Positions 36,762-56,321 are shown, counted from the first letter of the stretch. The stretch: 64,000 bases of DNA from Candidatus Eiseniibacteriota bacterium (GCA_030017955.1 JASEGR010000003.1:6508-70507), one strand, 5' to 3'. Program-made: numbers and translations. Notes: generated by a model not told the origin, from the sequence alone.

Positions 36762-36837
36762 GCGACCCTAGCTCAGTCGGTAGAGCACCAGACTGAAAAT
36801 CTGGGTGTCCGCAGTTCAATTCTGCGGGGTCGCACCA
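36762..36837 (+). tRNA. tRNA-Phe (anticodon GAA)
   Basis: Manual fold: acceptor GCGACCC/GGGTCGC, D-arm GCTCAGTCGGTAGAGC, anticodon stem CCAGA/TCTGG with loop CTGAAAA, T-arm CGCAG-TTCAATT-CTGCG, discriminator A, and an encoded CCA. Confidence 0.85.
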
Positions 36838-36948: not shown

Positions 36949-37024
36949 GCTGGTGTAGCTCAGCAGGTAGAGCAACGCACTCGTAATGCGTAGGTCAGCG
37001 GTTCGATTCCGCTCACCAGCTCCA
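36949..37024 (+). tRNA. tRNA-Thr (anticodon CGT)
   Basis: Manual fold: acceptor GCTGGTG/CACCAGC, D-arm AGCTCAGCAGGTAGAGC, anticodon stem ACGCA/TGCGT with loop CTCGTAA, T-arm GCGGTTCGATTCCGC, and an encoded CCA. Confidence 0.85.
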
Positions 37025-42470: not shown

Positions 42471-42654
42471 CAGCGAGTGCGTGGAAGGGGGTTCCGGAAT
42501 AGAGGTTTTCTCAGTGTCTTCTGCGATTGGCCGGGAGCGAATGGGCTCTGGTGGGCCCCGAGGACTTCAAATCCTTAAGTCGGGCGCCAATACCGTCCGG
42601 GGTGGGTTCGATTCCCACGCGTTCCCGCCATCTCGTTCGTGGTCACAGCAAGGC

Positions 42655-44987: not shown

Positions 44988-45623
44988 GTGGCAAATAGGA
45001 AAGAGCTCAAGAAACGGTCTTTGAAAAGCACAGTCAGAGAGTATCTCGAGGCGATTGCCCTTGCGATTGTCGTTACGCTTTTCGTGAGGGCCTTCATTAT
45101 TCAAGCGTTCAGGATCCCGACTGGTTCGATGACCGATACTCTTCTCGAGGGGGATTTCCTTTTTGTCAGCAAGTTCATCTATGGCGCACAGGTCCCTTTC
45201 ACCAACTGGCATCTCCCCAAAATCAGAGAGCCGAGGCCGGGAGATATAATTGTCTTCAAATATCCCGAAGACCCGAAGAGGGATTTTATCAAGAGATGCG
45301 TGGCCGTTGGCGGGCAGACGATAGAGATTCGGAACAAAGAAATGTATGTAGACGGACGGAAGCAGAACGCCGGTTATGTGAAGCACGTCGATGATCGCAT
45401 ATACTCGGCATTCGAAAGCCCAAGAGACAATTTTGGGCCTTTCTATGTGCCAAAAGGATACCTTTTCATGATGGGTGATAACCGCGACAACAGTCACGAC
45501 AGCCGCTTCTGGGGTCCTCTTGATGAGAAACTCGTGAAGGGAGAGGCGCTCGTCCTTTACTGGTCATGGGACAGGGAGCATTTCAGACCAAGATTCAGCA
45601 GGCTATTTCACCTGATAAAATGA
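44988..45623 (+). CDS. lepB: Signal peptidase I
   Basis: N-terminal TM, catalytic Ser box IPTGSMTDTL, Lys box KRCVAVGGQTIE, and the GDNRDNSHDSR box. It forms the classic lepA-lepB pair. Confidence 0.9.
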   Translation: MANRKELKKRSLKSTVREYLEAIALAIVVTLFVRAFIIQAFRIPTGSMTDTLLEGDFLFVSKFIYGAQVPFTNWHLPKIREPRPGDIIVFKYPEDPKRDFIKRCVAVGGQTIEIRNKEMYVDGRKQNAGYVKHVDDRIYSAFESPRDNFGPFYVPKGYLFMMGDNRDNSHDSRFWGPLDEKLVKGEALVLYWSWDREHFRPRFSRLFHLIK

Positions 45624-45633
45624 GCGAGCACAT

Positions 45634-45669
45634 CCTCTCCCCTCTGGGGAGAGGACCGAGGTGAGGGGA
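45634..45669 (+). repeat. 36-nt palindromic REP-like element, copy 1 (contains SD + GTG start of hemW)
   Basis: CCTCTCCCCTCTGGGGAGAGGACCGAGGTGAGGGGA. The inverted repeat is CCTCTCCCC/GGGGAGAGG. It is near-identical to the copy at 49392-49427. Confidence 0.6.
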
Positions 45670-46818
45670 TTGCCATCTGATTCATCCCTGGGACTCTATC
45701 TCCACATTCCATTCTGCAGAAAGAAGTGCAGCTACTGTTCGTTCATGTCAGTAGTTCCACAAGATGACCTTCTGCGCAGGTTTGCGGCTTGTCTCAAACG
45801 TGAGATTGATCTCAACCGGGATCTTCTCTCTCAGAGGAAGATTGCGACGGTCTATGTCGGCGGCGGAACTCCGGGCGTTCTCGGTGAGCGTCTCCTCGAT
45901 ATTATCCGGTGTCTTTCCGGGAACTTTGATCTAAGCGATATTGTCGAATTCACAGTCGAGCTCAATCCTGAATCTTCGCCAGTCGAGCTCCTCAGAGGAA
46001 TCAGAAAACTCGGGGTAAACAGAGTGAGCATCGGAGTTCAATCATTCCAGGATTCCCTGCTCTCCACGCTTGGCAGGATTCACACCCCAGACATGGCGAG
46101 GACAGCTTACTCGCGGGCGAGGGAAGCCGGATTCCAGAACGTCTCCATCGACCTAATGGCCGGAATCCCTGGCCAGAATCCTGAGCTGCTGAAAGAAGAT
46201 CTGGAACAAGCGGTCTCGCTGCTGCCCGAGCACATATCGTACTACCTTCTTACGCCCGAGAGCATGACACCGCTCTCTCATGCCATTACATCAGGGTATG
46301 CCCATCTCCCGGCCGACTCTCTCGCCAGAAGAATGCTTCTCCATGTTTCGAAGTTTCTGAAACAGAATGACTATGAAAGATACGAGACATCCAACTTCGC
46401 CAGACCAGCGTTCGAGTCGCGGCATAATATAAATTACTGGAAAAGGGGCGAGTACCTTGGGCTAGGGCCGTCTGCCTGTTCTCATCTGTCCGGGAAGAGA
46501 TGGAGGAACAATCCAGACCTGGAGAAATATCTTTCCTCTTTGGAAGATTCGAGAGTTCCAATGGTTGACGAGGAAGTGCTGACAAGCCGCGAGATTCTAA
46601 CAGAGAGCTTCATGCTCGGCTTGAGAATGAAAGAGGGCATCCCTCTTGAATCGCTAAGAGAAACTATCCCTCCTGAAAAGAATGAATCTCTTATGCTGCT
46701 TGTGTCATCTCTTTCCGAACAAGGGCTTCTCAGTCAAAAGGGAGGCAATCTTTCCATAACTGAAGAAGGGCTCCCGGTCTCAGATTCCATAATCGTTGAG
46801 CTTGTTTCCTCACTGTGA
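45661..46818 (+). CDS. hemW: Radical SAM heme chaperone HemW (HemN-like, oxygen-independent coproporphyrinogen III oxidase family)
   Basis: GTG start. LYLHIPFCRKKCSYCSF carries the CxxxCxxC radical-SAM motif. The C-terminal HemN_C-like domain is present. The lepA-hemW neighbourhood is typical. Confidence 0.85.
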   Translation: MRGLPSDSSLGLYLHIPFCRKKCSYCSFMSVVPQDDLLRRFAACLKREIDLNRDLLSQRKIATVYVGGGTPGVLGERLLDIIRCLSGNFDLSDIVEFTVELNPESSPVELLRGIRKLGVNRVSIGVQSFQDSLLSTLGRIHTPDMARTAYSRAREAGFQNVSIDLMAGIPGQNPELLKEDLEQAVSLLPEHISYYLLTPESMTPLSHAITSGYAHLPADSLARRMLLHVSKFLKQNDYERYETSNFARPAFESRHNINYWKRGEYLGLGPSACSHLSGKRWRNNPDLEKYLSSLEDSRVPMVDEEVLTSREILTESFMLGLRMKEGIPLESLRETIPPEKNESLMLLVSSLSEQGLLSQKGGNLSITEEGLPVSDSIIVELVSSL

Positions 46819-47535
46819 GTTTTGCTTCCTTCCTACCGGCATCATACCTAATGGCTGTTCTTCTTCCGGCATATTCAGAACCTTCTTCGTTTTGTCATCA
46901 TCAAAGGCCCCGATGAATACTGTTCCCAACTCTAGCGAGATTGCCTGCAAATAGACATTCTGGGCCGCGCAGCCAACTTCCATGTGCGCGTATCTTGTGC
47001 CTCTCTCCCCATATTTCACAGTTGTTCGTTGATAAACTGCTGTGAATACTATGACTGCAGCGGCATCTTTAACCAAAGACTGGCGAACAACAACGTTGCA
47101 TAGATCCGCTCTTCTATCTCCTTCCATCACTTCTATCAGTTCGCGCCCGTGGGGCTTGTACTTGTAAACGCCACGTGAAAGGTCGGTCACATTGCCTGCC
47201 ACAATATAGAGTTCAAGCGGGTACAGAGCTCCAGCAGAAGGAGATGTTCTGAAGCTTCTCGCTGAATCTGTTATTCCCTGAGCTGCCCACAGAAGCTGTG
47301 ATACTTCAGCTAGTGTCAGTGGTTCATCGTTGTAACCTCTGACCGACCTTCTCTCAAGCAGAGCTTTTTCCACCGAGGTTTTGCCATCGTACTTGGGTTG
47401 AGGGAGTTTTATTGCTTGCTGGTTCAAAACGGATTTGTGCCTCATTTTTTGGGGTGCCAATGTAACAGCCAACACCACCCCTGCAGACATCAGAATTACA
47501 ACTGATATCAAAGCGTACTTCTTCGCTCTGGTCAT
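46810..47535 (-). CDS. SagB/ThcOx-type dehydrogenase (nitroreductase-fold) with N-terminal membrane anchor
   Basis: 241 aa with an N-terminal TM helix. RSVRGY...LSQLLWAAQG...GALYPLELYIV...AHMEVGCAAQNVYLQAISLELGTVFIGAFDD match the SagB-type/nitroreductase family signatures. Confidence 0.65.
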   Translation of the reverse strand: MTRAKKYALISVVILMSAGVVLAVTLAPQKMRHKSVLNQQAIKLPQPKYDGKTSVEKALLERRSVRGYNDEPLTLAEVSQLLWAAQGITDSARSFRTSPSAGALYPLELYIVAGNVTDLSRGVYKYKPHGRELIEVMEGDRRADLCNVVVRQSLVKDAAAVIVFTAVYQRTTVKYGERGTRYAHMEVGCAAQNVYLQAISLELGTVFIGAFDDDKTKKVLNMPEEEQPLGMMPVGRKQNSQ

Positions 47536-47795
47536 TGTTTGTTCTCCTCGCGTATTGGACTAAACTCTTAGGCGTTTGATCTTTTCCACCCAATTCCGTT
47601 CCAACGAATAGCGGCAAGGATACCATTCCCAAGTTAGAGGATATTAAGAGACACGGCAAGTGGAAATACGGGGCAGTGCATCTTATTCATCGAGCGTGTG
47701 CCGGGCGAAAAGATACCTATCTCCCCAAGCCGTGGGAAACTCCCCTTTACCTGTGCTTGCTTGAAGGAGGCGCGTAGAAGTGATATTCTTAAGTA

Positions 47796-49358
47796 TTGGT
47801 ACCTTATCGGACCGCCCGTGGATGGGCCCGGGCATCAGACTTGGAACCTCCGAACTTGCCAAAGGCCACTCAAATACTAGCGTTTTCTGCCATCCTGGTG
47901 CTTGCTGCTGTCCCGGCTTACCTTTTCTCGGCTCCTATTCATACGACATACCTCTGGCATATGCATCAGCCAATCTACTGGCCTGACAAAAGCACGTGGA
48001 ATCCGTGGAGATATGAGACTGCTTTCGAAACCGTAACTCTGGGACATTCACAGAGTGATGTTTTCTCCATATTCAACTGGGTGGTGGTCCCCGATATTCA
48101 CATTGCAAGGGCGTGCAAAGACTATCCGTTCGCCGGCCAGGAGGACAACTGCGATCCGCCAAACCAAGCCGACAAGATAAATCCGCCTCAAGGCACCTAC
48201 ACGAAAACGAGCATTTCGAGAGGAGTGGCCGTAAAGGTGCCGCCCGGATACGCAGAAAGACCGCACTACGCAAAGTACATCGACCCCGGAACCGGGACGG
48301 AATACAAGATCCTGGTCATCCCTTCGGCGATGGCACCGAGTTGGAATGAAGGATACGGCATGTACGGAACGAGTGAGATTGACTCGATGGCCCGGTTCAA
48401 TGATCCGGCGCACCCAATTCTTGTTCTGTTCAGCCACGATGGAGACAACGCCTGGTCAGGCGGATACTCTTATTACTACGAGAATGTATCAAGCTTCAGC
48501 CATCAGGCGGTCTCAAGAGGCTACGAGCCGACAACGGTGGAAGAGTACCTTCAGGATCATCCTGTTGATCTGAACGACATCGTTCATGTCGAAGCGGAAG
48601 ATAGCCAGGGCAATGTAAAGAGAACTCCGATTCAGCACGTCTGGATCGGGACCGGGGCCGGTGGAGATGAGGCTTGCTTCTGGGAACCGGAAACTCCTTC
48701 TTTAGGCGACACTCTCTCCATCTTCTACAGCGCGGTTTATGGCACGCTTCCTGACACAGCAAGCAGAGTCTTCATCCGCATCGGACATAGCGGGTGGAAA
48801 GACATTCTCACGCCTGACCCAGCAATGGTTTTTGATGCCGAAAGAGATTACTGGAAGTACCGCTATGCAATTCCGTCTCAGGCAACCTCCGTCGATTTCG
48901 TTTTCAACGATGGGAGAGGGAATTGGGACAATAACAGTGGTGATGATTGGACAGTACCCGTATCGGGAACCATTCAATTTGTGATGGACGGCGTGCTCGA
49001 TTCGTCTGCTGTGAAGATCGCAAGTTCAAGCGGAATCGATCTGCGGGCTTGTGTGAGCGGTACGGTTCTTTACTTCGCCACTCAGGGGGTCCTATCTACA
49101 AACGGTGTGGATCACTTCGTTTTCGTTTCGACTTCGCCGGGAAGCTTGAAATCGGCACCCTGGGCAAAGTCCGGGAGTGTGGCTTCCTGGAACTACTTCC
49201 TCGGCGGTGAAGATTCAAACAACTGGTGCGGCTGGTTTGACGGGGCAGGAACGTTAGTGAATTCATCTTCTCTTGGGAAGGCGCAAGGAGCTGCGCTTGA
49301 GGGAACGATAGACCTGGAGGCTCTATTCAGGACTATGCCAAGAAGGTCCTCTACCTGA
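47796..49358 (+). CDS. Secreted carbohydrate-active protein: N-terminal GH57-like domain (HxHQPxY motif) and C-terminal CBM25/26-like starch-binding module
   Basis: Signal/anchor ILAFSAILVLAAVPAYLFSA. YLWHMHQPIYWPD is the GH57 conserved-region-I-like motif. The C-terminal FVFNDGRGNWDNNSGDDWTVPV resembles the CBM25/26 (NWDNNxGxNY) motif. Confidence 0.45.
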   Translation: MVPYRTARGWARASDLEPPNLPKATQILAFSAILVLAAVPAYLFSAPIHTTYLWHMHQPIYWPDKSTWNPWRYETAFETVTLGHSQSDVFSIFNWVVVPDIHIARACKDYPFAGQEDNCDPPNQADKINPPQGTYTKTSISRGVAVKVPPGYAERPHYAKYIDPGTGTEYKILVIPSAMAPSWNEGYGMYGTSEIDSMARFNDPAHPILVLFSHDGDNAWSGGYSYYYENVSSFSHQAVSRGYEPTTVEEYLQDHPVDLNDIVHVEAEDSQGNVKRTPIQHVWIGTGAGGDEACFWEPETPSLGDTLSIFYSAVYGTLPDTASRVFIRIGHSGWKDILTPDPAMVFDAERDYWKYRYAIPSQATSVDFVFNDGRGNWDNNSGDDWTVPVSGTIQFVMDGVLDSSAVKIASSSGIDLRACVSGTVLYFATQGVLSTNGVDHFVFVSTSPGSLKSAPWAKSGSVASWNYFLGGEDSNNWCGWFDGAGTLVNSSSLGKAQGAALEGTIDLEALFRTMPRRSST

Positions 49359-49391
49359 AATAGAATAACGAGCTCCGCTGCCCCTCATCAA

Positions 49392-49427
49392 CCTCTCCCC
49401 CTCGGGGAGAGGATCAAGGTGAGGGGA
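49392..49427 (+). repeat. 36-nt palindromic REP-like element, copy 2
   Basis: CCTCTCCCCCTCGGGGAGAGGATCAAGGTGAGGGGA, flanked by an outer inverted repeat CCCCTCA...TGAGGGG. It sits in a ~410-nt gene-free region. Confidence 0.6.
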
Positions 49428-49770
49428 ACTTGCCCTGCGACGCTCCCTTTTCGGGGAGACAGGAACCCAGGAATCTCATTATGTTCGCTCCAACGCCATC
49501 TTACCTTACAGTTGTACACAATGTCTTATTTCTTCACATTAGCCGCTAATTCTGACAGAATACCTGCTCGGCCCAGCACCCGAGACGTTCCGGGCCATGA
49601 AGGAACTGAGTCCCAGTAATCCAAGCATCGTGTATAATGGCGGGTGGTCAAATAGGTTGTGCTGTTCACCGCGCGGATCAAGCTGACTATCATGCGTCTC
49701 CACAACGGCTAGATCTCAGCTGCAGCCTATCCGCGGCAACCCCAGTGACAATAGGAAGCCTACCACCGAA

Positions 49771-50907
49771 ATGAGACAGCATCAGGCAGCAGCGCGCGGT
49801 TCAAAACTGTCAGTTGCTCTTGTCCAGGATTGGCTCACCGGCATGAGGGGAGGGGAGAAGTGCCTCAGCGCCTTCTGCGAGCTCTTCCCTGATGCTCCGG
49901 TATTCACGTTGATTCACAAGAAGGGAACTATCTGGAAGAGCATAGAAGATCACCGTATCGAGACATCTTTCATCGAGAAGCTTCCCTTCGCGTTCAAATC
50001 TCACCAGAAATACCTTCCACTTTTCCCGGCTGCCATCGAGCGGTTCGACCTGCGGGGATTCGATCTTGTCATATCTTCGAGCCACTGCGTTGCCAAGGGT
50101 GTGCTCACATTTCCAGGAACTACTCACATCTGCTACTGTCACACTCCCATGAGGTATGCATGGGACATGTATTGGGACTACTTCGGGCCCGAGAGGGAGC
50201 GCGGAATAAAGGGGAAATTCATTTCGGTCGTCCTGAGCTATCTGAGAACGTGGGATGTGGCATCATCGCAGAGAGTGGATCACTTCATCGCCAATTCGGA
50301 GAACGTGAAGAAGAAGATTGCCAAGTACTACGGGAGAGATTCCGAGGTCATCCATCCCTGGGTTGATACGGAAACCTTCGTAGAAAACGGAAACCCTGGT
50401 GATTACTATCTCATTGTTTCCGCACTCGTTCCTTACAAGAGAATCGACCTTGCCATTGAGGCAACTAGAAGACTCAATGCCCCTCTCGTAATCGTCGGAA
50501 ATGGAGTTGAAAGGAAGAGGCTTGAGAAGCAGGCGGGCCCGAATGTGAAGTTCACCGGATGGCTTGATGGCCAAACGCTTTCGAAGTATTACTCGGGCGC
50601 AAAGGCGGTGATCCTTCCAGGAGAGGAGGATTTCGGAATAGTGCCTCTTGAGGCGCAATCTTGCAGGAGGCCGGTCGTCGCTTACGGAGCCGGAGGAGCC
50701 CTCGAGACCGTGGAAGAGGGGAAGACAGGATTCTTCTTCTATCCGCACACCGTTGAATCCCTGATCGAAGCTCTCGTCAAAGTCGGAAAGGAAAAGCTTG
50801 ATGGGGATGCGATGAGAAAGAACGCTCTCAGATTCACAAAAGAGAACTTCAAAGAAAAGATCAAAGCTTCGATAGAAACAAAGCTGGGGGAGCGAAGTTT
50901 TGGGTAA
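49771..50907 (+). CDS. Glycosyltransferase family 4 (GT-B, RfaG-like)
   Basis: 378 aa. The C-terminal GT4 motif is PGEEDFGIVPLEAQSCRRPVVAYGAGGALETV (E-X7-E). Confidence 0.8.
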   Translation: MRQHQAAARGSKLSVALVQDWLTGMRGGEKCLSAFCELFPDAPVFTLIHKKGTIWKSIEDHRIETSFIEKLPFAFKSHQKYLPLFPAAIERFDLRGFDLVISSSHCVAKGVLTFPGTTHICYCHTPMRYAWDMYWDYFGPERERGIKGKFISVVLSYLRTWDVASSQRVDHFIANSENVKKKIAKYYGRDSEVIHPWVDTETFVENGNPGDYYLIVSALVPYKRIDLAIEATRRLNAPLVIVGNGVERKRLEKQAGPNVKFTGWLDGQTLSKYYSGAKAVILPGEEDFGIVPLEAQSCRRPVVAYGAGGALETVEEGKTGFFFYPHTVESLIEALVKVGKEKLDGDAMRKNALRFTKENFKEKIKASIETKLGERSFG

Positions 50908-52951: not shown

Positions 52952-54040
52952 GTGAGAATCATCTTTGTGAACACCTCGAGGATTTGGGGAGGGAACGAGA
53001 AGTGGACATTTGAAGCCATCAAGGGTCTCCGGTCACGGGGGAACGAGGTGGCTCTTATCTGCGGCAGGAGCCTTCTGGAGAAAAGGGCAAGAGGGCTTGG
53101 GATCCAGGTTGTCCGGATGCGCATGAGAAGCGACATTGACCTCATTTCACTTTTCAGACTCACGGTTTTCTTCAGGACGTGGAAACCTCGGAGCGTCGTA
53201 CTCACGAGGGGAAGGGAATACTGGCTTGGCGGAATCGCCGCGAGAATGGCACGGATTCCGTTCATCGTTGCCAGAATCGGGATTGAAAGAGAGGTAAGAC
53301 GTTCCCTCAAAGACAGACTCATCTTTGGATTCCTTCTCGACAAGATAATCGTGAACTCGTCCTCGATACGCAGCTCTCTCCTGAGCGGCGGCGCAATCCC
53401 TGCCGATAAGGTCGCGGTCATCTATAATGGAGTCAGGACGGATCCGCCTGACGAGAAAGCAAGGCAGCGGATAAGAGAGAGTCTTGGCGTTCAGAAAAAT
53501 GAACTTCTCATTGGGACGGCAGGAAGGCTCATACACAGAAAAGGAGTAGACATCCTGCTCGATGCAGGGAAGAGACTTATGCTCAAGGACAAAAGTGTGA
53601 AACTGGTCTTCTTAGGCGACGGCCCACTGAGAGAAGACATACTTGCAGCATCCAGGGAGGAATGTTTCAGCGGCAGGATTATCGTCACGGGCTTCATCGA
53701 AGGCATCGAAGAATATCTTGCTTCCCTGGACATGTTCGTTCTCCCTTCGCGGGCAGAAGGAATATCGAATGCCCTTCTTGAAGCGATGGGACTCGGTATC
53801 CCATCCATCGCTGCCAGAGCAGGCGGTCAGGAAGAGGCAATTGCAGACGGGGAAACCGGATTTCTGGTCGGGAAAGAAGATGTGAGCTCACTTTGTGAAC
53901 GCCTCCTCGAGCTGACCTCGAAGCCCGACAAGAGATCGACCATGGGGAAGCTGGCAAGACATTTTGTGGGCGAGAGATTCCCAATGGACGTGATGCTCGA
54001 GAAGCTCGAATCGCTGCTCGCCGGCGGCGAGAAAGGCTGA
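52952..54040 (+). CDS. Glycosyltransferase family 4
   Basis: 362 aa. GT4 C-terminal motif PSRAEGISNALLEAMGLGIPSIAARAGGQEEAI. Confidence 0.8.
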   Translation: MRIIFVNTSRIWGGNEKWTFEAIKGLRSRGNEVALICGRSLLEKRARGLGIQVVRMRMRSDIDLISLFRLTVFFRTWKPRSVVLTRGREYWLGGIAARMARIPFIVARIGIEREVRRSLKDRLIFGFLLDKIIVNSSSIRSSLLSGGAIPADKVAVIYNGVRTDPPDEKARQRIRESLGVQKNELLIGTAGRLIHRKGVDILLDAGKRLMLKDKSVKLVFLGDGPLREDILAASREECFSGRIIVTGFIEGIEEYLASLDMFVLPSRAEGISNALLEAMGLGIPSIAARAGGQEEAIADGETGFLVGKEDVSSLCERLLELTSKPDKRSTMGKLARHFVGERFPMDVMLEKLESLLAGGEKG

Positions 54041-55203: not shown

Positions 55204-56321
55204 CCGCCAAGCTCAAGATTCTTTTTCTCAACTCAGTCCGAAGGGAGATGTGGGGCGGAGGCGAGAAATGGATGGTTACTGTCGCAGCCGGCCTCAAAAA
55301 ACGTGGCCATACAGTTTTTCTCGGGGGCAGGGAAGGTTCCCGTTTTCTTGAGGAGGCACGCAAGGCGGGAGTTGAGACGGTGAGGTTCAATTTTCGTGGA
55401 GACCTTGATCCTGTCACTTCCTTCAGGATTTTCCGTTTCATCTGGGAGAACAATCTCACGACGGTGTGCACCAACTACGACAAGGAGCTCAGGCTGGCGA
55501 TGATTCCCGCAAAGCTGTCGAGGGGCACTGCGGTCGTTGCAAGAAAAGGGCTCCCCTTGATACGGGACAGATTGACTTACAGAATATGCTATCAGCACTT
55601 TGTAGATGCGATCATCGTCCCTTCCAAGAGCCTGAAGAGAGAGTTGAGCCAGATACCGTGGCTCGACAAGAATATCATTAACGTTGTGCCGAACGGGGTT
55701 GATGCTTCAAAATACCTTCCTGGCCTTGACAGATCGCTTCTTGCCGAGTTCAGACTTCTACCGGACAGCCCGTCCGTGGGAGTAGTGGCCCGGCTGTCAG
55801 GCCAGAAGGGGCACCTCGCTTTCCTTCAGGCGGCCAAAAAAGTGAGGGAGAAATTACCTGATGCTGTGTTCTTCGTGGTGGGTGACGGGAAGGAAAGAGG
55901 CGCCCTGGAAGAGAGAGCAAGAGTTCTTTCGCTCGAGAAGAATGTAATTTTTGCCGGGCACAGAAGAGATATGACAAAGGTGTACGCGGCGCTCGACGTC
56001 GTCGTCCTCCCTTCACTCTATGAAGGAATGCCAAACGCAGTTCTTGAAGCGATGTCATGCGGGCGGGCAGTGGTCGCGACACGCACGGGAGGAACTGAGG
56101 AGGTGGTTCAGGACGGCATCTCAGGCTTCATGGTCAACAGGGAAGATCACACTGCAATCGCCGAAAGGGTCATCCAACTCCTCTCCGAACCTGAACTTCG
56201 TGAAAAGATGGGGAATGCCGGAAGACGCCTGGTACTTGAGAAATTCACGGTGGAAGATATGATCAAGTCTGTCGAGACGATTTTTCTGTCGCGCTCATTG
56301 CCGGTACCCAACGCGCTATGA
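55200..56321 (+). CDS. Glycosyltransferase family 4
   Basis: 373 aa. GT4 motif PSLYEGMPNAVLEAMSCGRAVVATRTGGTEEVV. Confidence 0.8.
   Translation: MTAKLKILFLNSVRREMWGGGEKWMVTVAAGLKKRGHTVFLGGREGSRFLEEARKAGVETVRFNFRGDLDPVTSFRIFRFIWENNLTTVCTNYDKELRLAMIPAKLSRGTAVVARKGLPLIRDRLTYRICYQHFVDAIIVPSKSLKRELSQIPWLDKNIINVVPNGVDASKYLPGLDRSLLAEFRLLPDSPSVGVVARLSGQKGHLAFLQAAKKVREKLPDAVFFVVGDGKERGALEERARVLSLEKNVIFAGHRRDMTKVYAALDVVVLPSLYEGMPNAVLEAMSCGRAVVATRTGGTEEVVQDGISGFMVNREDHTAIAERVIQLLSEPELREKMGNAGRRLVLEKFTVEDMIKSVETIFLSRSLPVPNAL

Follow-up and report, generated by a model that had tools for sequence, protein, structure and literature searches.

Two 36-base elements in a Candidatus Eisenbacteria genome, one of them at the start of hemW, are probably copies of the BoxC/PIT/TM repeat

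Can a short repeat carry a translation start with it from place to place? This question is raised by a 64,000-nucleotide (nt) stretch of a Candidatus Eiseniibacteriota bacterium genome (GCA_030017955.1, JASEGR010000003.1:6508-70507; this whole stretch is called the window below), which holds two near-identical palindromic elements of 36 bases. The first of these overlaps the annotated start of hemW, the gene for a radical SAM heme chaperone. An earlier note on this DNA had read them as a small REP/MITE-like repeat that supplies a Shine-Dalgarno sequence, a GTG start codon and the residues 'MRG', or alternatively as a duplicated hemW 5' end. Our analysis points elsewhere: both elements are very probably copies of the repeat family known as BoxC, PIT or TM, and they are best read as passive or selfish sequences with local side effects.

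The two elements were found exactly where the earlier note had placed them. Copy 1 (CCTCTCCCCTCTGGGGAGAGGACCGAGGTGAGGGGA, 45634-45669) and copy 2 (CCTCTCCCCCTCGGGGAGAGGATCAAGGTGAGGGGA, 49392-49427) are identical at 31 of 36 positions without gaps. They stand in direct orientation, 3.76 kb apart, and each is followed by ..TTGCC... A repeat finder aligned 45631-45669 with 49389-49427 (39 nt, 85% identity) and the alignment extended no further. Sub-pattern searches allowing up to three mismatches counted two elements in the 64-kb window, where shuffled sequence would give 0.06-0.11. The base composition is flat across the region, and no compositional anomaly that would suggest an inserted cassette was seen between the copies.

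The similarity of the flanks is marginal upstream (p ~0.03) and weaker downstream (p ~0.1). A gapped alignment placed ACCTGA..CGAGC upstream of both copies (p ~0.03-0.04 against shuffles and window controls); this stretch was rejected as part of the element since its significance is only marginal. The similar sequences that precede the copies are ACCTGATAAAATGAGCGAGC (45606-45629) and ACCTGAAATAGAATAACGAGC (49353-49376), and they overlap the stop codons of the preceding genes in different frames. A small hairpin, CTCCC-TTTTC-GGGGAG, lies at 49444-49459, 17 nt 3' of copy 2, and may be a degenerate fragment of another copy.

The inverted repeat described earlier, CCTCTCCCC and its complement GGGGAGAGG, is present in both copies, but that description overlooked a third, mirror-symmetric block, GGTGAGGGG, as well as a fourth block in copy 2. 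In reverse, GGTGAGGGG reads GGGGAGTGG and differs from the purine block by a single A-to-T change. Its contacts when folded antiparallel onto GGGGAGAGG are all G*G, A*A or T*A, as in the triads of a class II (purine-motif) intramolecular triplex. The two copies and their blocks are:

45633-45669, plus strand: copy 1, a BoxC/PIT/TM-type repeat that takes up the whole of the 37-nt lepB-hemW spacer
45633-45642, plus strand: Y block of copy 1, TCCTCTCCCC, followed by the loop TCT
45646-45655, plus strand: R block of copy 1, GGGGAGAGGA, followed by the loop CCG
45659-45668, plus strand: mirror block of copy 1, AGGTGAGGGG, followed by A
49381-49427, no single strand: copy 2, a four-block nested palindrome with the triplex motif on both strands
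49381-49389: block 0 of copy 2, CCCCTCATC, the fourth block, upstream of the others
49392-49400: Y block of copy 2, followed by the loop CTC
49404-49412: R block of copy 2, followed by the loop ATCAA
49418-49426: mirror block of copy 2, GGTGAGGGG

Both strands of the window were scanned for the Y-R-mirror arrangement using ITxF criteria (stem of at least 8, at most one mismatch, loops of 1-6). The scan returned only the loci of copy 1 and copy 2 in 64 kb, and nothing in 20 shuffles. When each block of copy 1 is lengthened by one base (T 45633, A 45655, A 45659), the element becomes a perfect 10-triad motif with loops of 3 and 3, free of both Watson-Crick and triad mismatches. Block 0 of copy 2 is complementary to its third block, which makes this copy a 46-nt nested palindrome whose triplex motif can be read on either strand: 10 triads with one Watson-Crick mismatch at the outer position (or 9 perfect triads) on the plus strand, and 9 triads with one triad mismatch on the minus strand. 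Both copies therefore have the three-block triplex motif of the BoxC/PIT/TM class. By analogy with the E. coli copies studied in vitro, a single DNA strand could fold back twice to give G*G:C, A*A:T and T*A:T triads, while the RNA form would be a GC hairpin of 9-10 bp only. The copy 1 hairpin has a computed energy of -18.7 kcal/mol as RNA and about -11 kcal/mol as DNA (ViennaRNA, which modelled the hairpin only); the nested RNA hairpin of copy 2 reaches -32.3 kcal/mol, with fold z-scores of -3.3 (RNA) and -3.7 (DNA).

The family has been named three times. In E. coli it went under the name BoxC (Bachellier et al. 1999) before the term PIT, short for 'potential intrastrand triplex', came into use (Hoyne et al. 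2000; Hoyne & Maher 2002). Holder et al. (2015, PMC4666352) then described it as TM or TMECO, an intrastrand triplex repeat of the G/C-rich purine-motif type. The published TMECO consensus is CCCTCNCCC N3-6 GGGNGAGGG N3 GGGNGAGGG[GTC-], and 23 copies from E. coli K-12 are given in Table 1 of that work (PMC4666352). Counted by hand, copy 1 agrees with TMECO no. 18 (CCCTCGCCCCTCCGGGGAGAGGGCCGGGGTGAGGGG) at 31 of 36 positions and with no. 16 at 29 of 36. Copy 1 thus matches an E. coli copy and copy 2 equally well. It reads TCCTCTCCC CTCTG GGGAGAGGA CCG AGGTGAGGG G, and the CCG in its second loop corresponds to the E. coli 'type B'. We verified TMECO no. 16 in the E. coli K-12 chromosome between zntA and tusA (NC_000913.3, ~3608684-3608721; positions 285-322 of our locus L241). 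The RefSeq annotation of E. coli K-12 carries no feature for this copy; the BoxC/TMECO family escapes routine annotation.

The window elements share with TMECO the three-block architecture, a nearly identical sequence, the G*G:C, A*A:T and T*A:T triads, an intergenic location and the occasional palindromic double form that is seen in copy 2. Copy 1 sits in a 37-nt spacer, with a 9-nt overlap with annotated hemW, and copy 2 in a gap of 412 nt. There are also differences. The outermost triad is T:A*A in copy 1 and A/A*A in copy 2 rather than C:G*G; the host is a Candidatus Eisenbacteria metagenome-assembled genome (MAG), whereas the 2015 survey recorded TMECO in 262 proteobacterial genomes (PMC4666352); and copy 1 overlaps a start codon, whereas the E. 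coli copies are intergenic at 10-310 nt from open reading frames (ORFs), with no fixed distance and no orientation or functional bias (PMC4666352).

TMECO oligonucleotides were shown to take the triplex fold in vitro by circular dichroism and nuclear magnetic resonance (NMR), and a G-quadruplex was excluded by NMR (PMC4666352). PIT elements had neither promoter nor terminator activity in E. coli and were without effect on RNA polymerase, and remnants of a transposase or integrase were never found beside TMECO (Holder et al., PMC4666352). The sole reported correlate of TMECO is a raised local sequence variability between E. coli strains.

Other genomes contain the same core. The pattern CCTCTCCCC N2-6 GGGGAGAGG N3-8 GGTGAGGGG, taken from the window, was scanned against one genome per species, and the source genome was not among the matches listed. 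The exact core pattern occurred in at least 120 genome stretches from many phyla. By record title, the matches listed include Enterobacteriaceae, Rhizobiales, Xanthomonadales and Pseudomonas, together with MAGs of Planctomycetota, Acidobacteriota, Rokubacteria/Methylomirabilota, Nitrospirota, Anaerolineae, Atribacterota and Omnitrophota; of the first 80 listed, 22 or more were non-proteobacterial MAGs. The core blocks are identical in four enterobacterial loci among these matches (L008, L042, L054 and L074, from Leclercia, Klebsiella and Enterobacteriaceae), and blastn of the window against the matched loci gave no match. Among the matches listed, second loops are most often G-TTA-G or G-CCG-G, which correspond to types A and B of E. 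coli. A fourth block, such as copy 2 has, is present in 17 of 142 copies from the same matches. Both the presence of a near-E. coli repeat sequence in a Candidatus Eisenbacteria MAG, from a phylum outside the 2015 survey, and the matches in MAGs that are non-proteobacterial by record title would extend the known range beyond the 262 proteobacterial genomes in which TMECO was recorded then.

The outer triad of these copies varies in a way that bears on structure. The bases before block 1, after block 2 and before block 3 are C/G/G in 105 of the 142 copies (matches listed, L001-L120). The alternative T/A/A, with all three strands changed, was found in 6 of 142 copies against 0.21 expected under independence, and copy 1 of the window (45633/45655/45659) is of this type. 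Selection acting on the triplex, and not on the hairpin alone, would be expected to produce such a joint change from C:G*G to T:A*A. The copies are phylogenetically non-independent, and the covariation is thus suggestive only.

The repeat also occurs outside chromosomes. Its canonical form was present in 785 PLSDB plasmid records, 313 of them predicted to be conjugative, although some of the records are chromosome-sized (~4.9 Mb); the host genera include Escherichia, Klebsiella, Rhizobium, Sinorhizobium, Azospirillum and Aeromonas, among others. The strict core pattern was found in at least 120 IMG/VR viral contigs but in 5 curated phage records, and curated phages searched with the window copy yielded only weak matches. 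The 2015 survey had found no plasmid or phage association of TMECO (PMC4666352). Occurrence in hundreds of plasmid records offers a route for the spread of the repeat.

Several points weigh against the reading of the window elements as passive BoxC/PIT/TM copies. Triplex formation in vivo has never been seen, even in E. coli, where dimethyl sulfate footprinting was negative (PMC4666352). Copy 1 departs from the strict TMECO pattern at three positions; all three belong to one triad, the change from C:G*G to T:A*A leaves an allowed triad, and the authors of the consensus permit one mismatched triplet (PMC4666352). The copies counted in the Eisenbacteria genome number two, a count that covers the 64-kb window. 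The status of 'passive copy' is a default reading, and the choice between the two hemW start codons discussed below rests on predicted RNA structure, in a 121-nt context of copy 1 that folds no more stably than shuffled sequence (z = 0.65).

The start of hemW is where the earlier claim of a built-in translation start can be followed most closely. Copy 1 lies among three co-oriented genes, lepA, lepB and hemW, all on the plus strand. The features concerned are:

44988-45623, plus strand: lepB, signal peptidase I (Peptidase_S26, E = 4.5e-49), with the C-terminus ...HLIK*
45661-46818, plus strand: hemW, encoding a radical SAM heme chaperone of 385 aa when read from the GTG (Radical_SAM and HemN_C domains)
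45661, plus strand: candidate hemW start GTG, in the third (mirror) block; the start annotated by NCBI
45670, plus strand: candidate hemW start TTG, the first base past the element
45688, plus strand: candidate hemW start CTG, with no Shine-Dalgarno sequence (-2.6 kcal/mol)

The TGA stop of lepB (45621-45623) lies 9 nt 5' of copy 1. The hemW frame is shut by a TAA at 45616, and no start codon precedes the GTG at 45661. In the window protein, residue 12 is the first of the conserved radical-SAM N-terminus LYLHIPFC. If either the GTG at 45661 or the TTG at 45670 is the start, the ribosome-binding site of hemW consists of element sequence; the purine-rich arms of copy 1 resemble a Shine-Dalgarno sequence, so hemW would initiate from element-derived sequence. 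The earlier assertion that copy 1 gives hemW its Shine-Dalgarno sequence and its GTG thus stands for the ribosome-binding site, while the start itself may be the GTG or the adjacent TTG, of which we prefer the TTG.

This preference follows from the predicted accessibility of the two sites. Binding to the anti-Shine-Dalgarno sequence was computed as -11.8 kcal/mol for GAGGUGA, before the TTG, and as -10.8 kcal/mol for GGAGAGGA, before the GTG. GAGGUGA (45658-45664) is perfectly complementary over 7 nt to a generic 16S tail; it is not part of the hairpin and stands 5 nt ahead of the TTG. Its probability of being unpaired in the predicted RNA ensemble is 0.20, with UUUCACCU in the 3' end of lepB as its partner. 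The same probability is 0.02 for GGAGAGGA, which forms the 3' arm of the copy 1 hairpin. The third-block GAGGUGA would then serve the TTG at 45670, whereas the hairpin would bury the GGAGAGGA of the annotated GTG. With GAGGUGA exposed and GGAGAGGA buried in this model, the TTG is slightly favoured over the GTG. Sequestration of the Shine-Dalgarno sequence by the hairpin, as proposed in the earlier note, therefore agrees with the predicted ensemble; the further suggestion of a regulatory switch found nothing in its support. A terminating lepB ribosome that melts the hairpin was not relied on, since the ribosome is estimated to reach only the base of the stem, with the stop codon 9 nt short of it.

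A 385-aa protein that is 100% identical to the window HemW is on record as a radical SAM family heme chaperone HemW of Candidatus Eisenbacteria; the next homologue is only 44% identical. In 116 HemW homologues in which the motif LY[IL]HIPFC could be located, a methionine stood most often 3 residues before it (median 5). The 8-11-residue extension of the window protein is thus not conserved. The CTG at 45688 lies near the position of the homologues' methionine (M-x-x-LY[IL]HIPFC), and the HemW start may have shifted upstream into the repeat.

These features can be put together in a reading that goes beyond a passive element. In this Eisenbacteria lineage the repeat would have landed in the lepB-hemW spacer and been exapted as ribosome-binding site and start of hemW, in place of an ancestral start that stood about 3 residues ahead of LYLHIPFC, with a gain of 8-11 non-conserved residues; the hairpin and its pairing with the lepB 3' end would make hemW translation dependent on lepB, and the purine arms of the family would serve as an occasional source of ribosome-binding sites and N-termini across phyla. 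We consider this whole sequence of events unlikely. As a copy of the BoxC/PIT/TM family, the element overlapping hemW is an ordinary repeat with a small local twist; that hemW initiates in it is best seen as an accident of the place that a purine-rich repeat came to occupy.

A role of the hairpins at the RNA level, by REP-like protection of the lepA-lepB message against 3' exonucleases or by coupling of hemW to lepB translation with sequestration of its Shine-Dalgarno sequence, is in our judgement quite improbable. It would make sense of a -18.7 kcal/mol RNA hairpin between co-oriented genes 37 nt apart, of the buried GGAGAGGA (unpaired probability 0.02), and of copy 2, which lies directly past a gene end with its stem of -32 kcal/mol. 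The pairing of GAGGUGA with UUUCACCU also means that translation of lepB would free GAGGUGA. These local features have to be set against a copy 1 context that folds like its shuffles (z = 0.65) and against the family as a whole, which has no fixed position or orientation relative to genes and whose PIT members showed no promoter or terminator activity and no RNA polymerase effect in E. coli (PMC4666352).

The broader form of the start hypothesis holds that the repeat is a portable cassette of Shine-Dalgarno sequence, GTG and MRG that starts genes or new ORFs wherever it lands. In the window, the annotated hemW GTG at 45661 and the preceding GGAGAGGA are indeed within the element, and the ORF at copy 2 shares the MRG start. 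For the family as a whole, we used a test set of 294 copies from other genomes and IMG/VR viral contigs (matches listed). ORFs of at least 100 aa were opened by the block-3 GTG in 64 of the 294, compared with 74 of 294 for the control frame +2; frame +1 is shut by a TGA inside GGTGAGGGG. When the comparison was confined to loci with a GC content of at least 0.58 and to ORFs with the coding-like signature GC3 > GC1 > GC2, the counts were 23 in the GTG frame and 24 in the control.

A coding-like ORF that has the block-3 GTG as its first possible start was left in 6 of 258 copies in such GC-rich loci. Three of these six (L216, L124 and L167, phage connector-like) have an evident start, MTIAEL, about 70 codons downstream of the block-3 GTG, and for the other candidates a downstream start looks likelier, at a GTG in the case of a permease-like and a phage protein. 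HemW homologues lack the MRG... extension, and the placement of E. coli elements at 10-310 nt from ORFs without orientation bias (PMC4666352) also weighs against the cassette. Given the lack of enrichment in the GTG frame and the PIT/TMECO literature, a start module is not a property of the family, and we regard the portable cassette as very unlikely.

As described before, the GTG of copy 2 opens an ORF of 66 aa and doubtful function. Its codon score is -0.151 per codon under the window codon model, compared with 0.247 +/- 0.082 for 66-codon pieces of real genes in the window (5th percentile 0.107), and no Pfam family matched it. With codon statistics of non-coding sequence, this ORF is most likely spurious. 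For the window, the identification matters little, as it adds two more copies of a known BoxC/PIT/TM repeat. A modest point concerns annotation: the G-rich arms mimic a Shine-Dalgarno sequence followed by GTG, and give rise to spurious 'MRG...' or '...PLPSGER..VRG' ORFs and doubtful starts, of which the 66-aa ORF is one example and the annotated HemW start possibly another.

A mobile element, either a REP sequence mobilised by a RAYT transposase or a MITE, is a highly improbable source of the two copies. The repeat is short, palindromic, intergenic, multi-copy and patchy between strains, and its canonical form is carried by many plasmids, 313 of them predicted to be conjugative. MITEs are defined by terminal inverted repeats and a target-site duplication, usually at 50-500 bp, and REPs by a conserved 5' tetranucleotide head and a REP-flanked RAYT gene. 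The window elements, at 36-47 nt, are below MITE size, neither copy has a target-site duplication or terminal inverted repeats beyond the palindrome, and the flanks of 294 copies contain no conserved extension. A MITE was rejected on these grounds, and a RAYT-associated REP was rejected on sequence, as a GTAG-type REP head is absent from both copies. No transposase-like ORF was present among eight ORFs scanned near the copies, and transposase or integrase remnants were never found beside TMECO (Holder et al., PMC4666352). Of the earlier description as a small REP/MITE-like repeat, the dispersed, REP-like character thus remains, with the core in at least 120 stretches, while membership of the REP/RAYT or MITE classes does not.

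The resemblance to the REP/BIME sequences of enterobacteria and pseudomonads is in form. Both kinds are GC-rich, short and imperfectly palindromic; they are dispersed between genes, often just past gene ends, and can form RNA hairpins that affect mRNA stability. The sequences are unrelated. A third mirror block is absent from REPs, which are lineage-specific and linked to RAYT transposases, whereas the window element is nearly the same in different phyla and no enzyme is known to mobilise it. At the gathering threshold, Rfam gave no family for the copies in the window, nor for canonical copies in 15 further loci. Look-alikes below threshold at permissive E-values (whalefall-1, Pab91, miRNA precursors and TCV_Pr) were rejected. 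Among these, the whalefall-1 RNA motif (RF01762) has a CUCUCC/GGAGAG hairpin followed by GGGUGAGG, and thus a three-block look; it differs in that copy 2 scored 10.4 bits on the plus strand and 18.3 bits on the minus strand (49346-49415), short of the gathering threshold of 37, with an 18-nt insert of the model unmatched. Copy 2 is not a member of this Rfam family. The whalefall-1 motif, known from metagenomes, may be related to the BoxC/TM repeat family.

Intrinsic terminators are scarcely credible: the GC-rich stem-loops do come directly after lepB and a 520-aa ORF, but neither is followed by a T-run, which excludes them as intrinsic terminators, the terminator scan lists neither, hemW coding sequence follows copy 1 immediately, and PIT elements showed no measured terminator activity (PMC4666352). 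The duplicated hemW 5' end, of which copy 2 would be a relic, can practically be dismissed: despite the direct orientation, the distance of only 3.76 kb and the shared ..TTGCC.., the similarity ends at the element edges (downstream flank p ~0.1), no hemW-like coding sequence follows copy 2, copy 1 is no closer to copy 2 than to E. coli copies, and local duplication is excluded by the absence of convincing flank similarity together with core matches in at least 120 unrelated genome stretches.

Beyond hemW, the gene order continues with a nitroreductase gene on the minus strand, the 520-aa ORF, copy 2 and a cluster of glycosyltransferase and sugar-transferase genes. The remaining features around copy 2 are:

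47796-49358, plus strand: 520-aa ORF with a weak CBM_25 match; its stop is 22 nt 5' of block 0 of copy 2
49419-49619, plus strand: ORF of 66 aa opened by the GTG of copy 2, most likely no gene
49633-49638, plus strand: TATAAT hexamer, in the 412-nt gap and outside the repeat
49771-50907: glycosyltransferase gene, downstream of the 412-nt gap

The gene-free gap that had been put at about 410 nt measures 412 nt (49359-49770). The perfect TATAAT reported in it is real, but its -35 is weak: of the 6 positions of TTGACA, only 3 are matched by the GTCCCA located 17 nt upstream, and the site is absent from the promoter scan's list. Further upstream in the window, a selenocysteine tRNA (68.3 bits) is found at 42533-42626, about 540 nt 5' of lepA, and two ordinary tRNAs at 36762-36834 and 36949-37021. 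In the sugar-transferase region, a 63-nt direct repeat with 73% identity (53726-53788 and 55992-56054, 2.3 kb apart) probably reflects a motif conserved between two paralogous glycosyltransferase genes.

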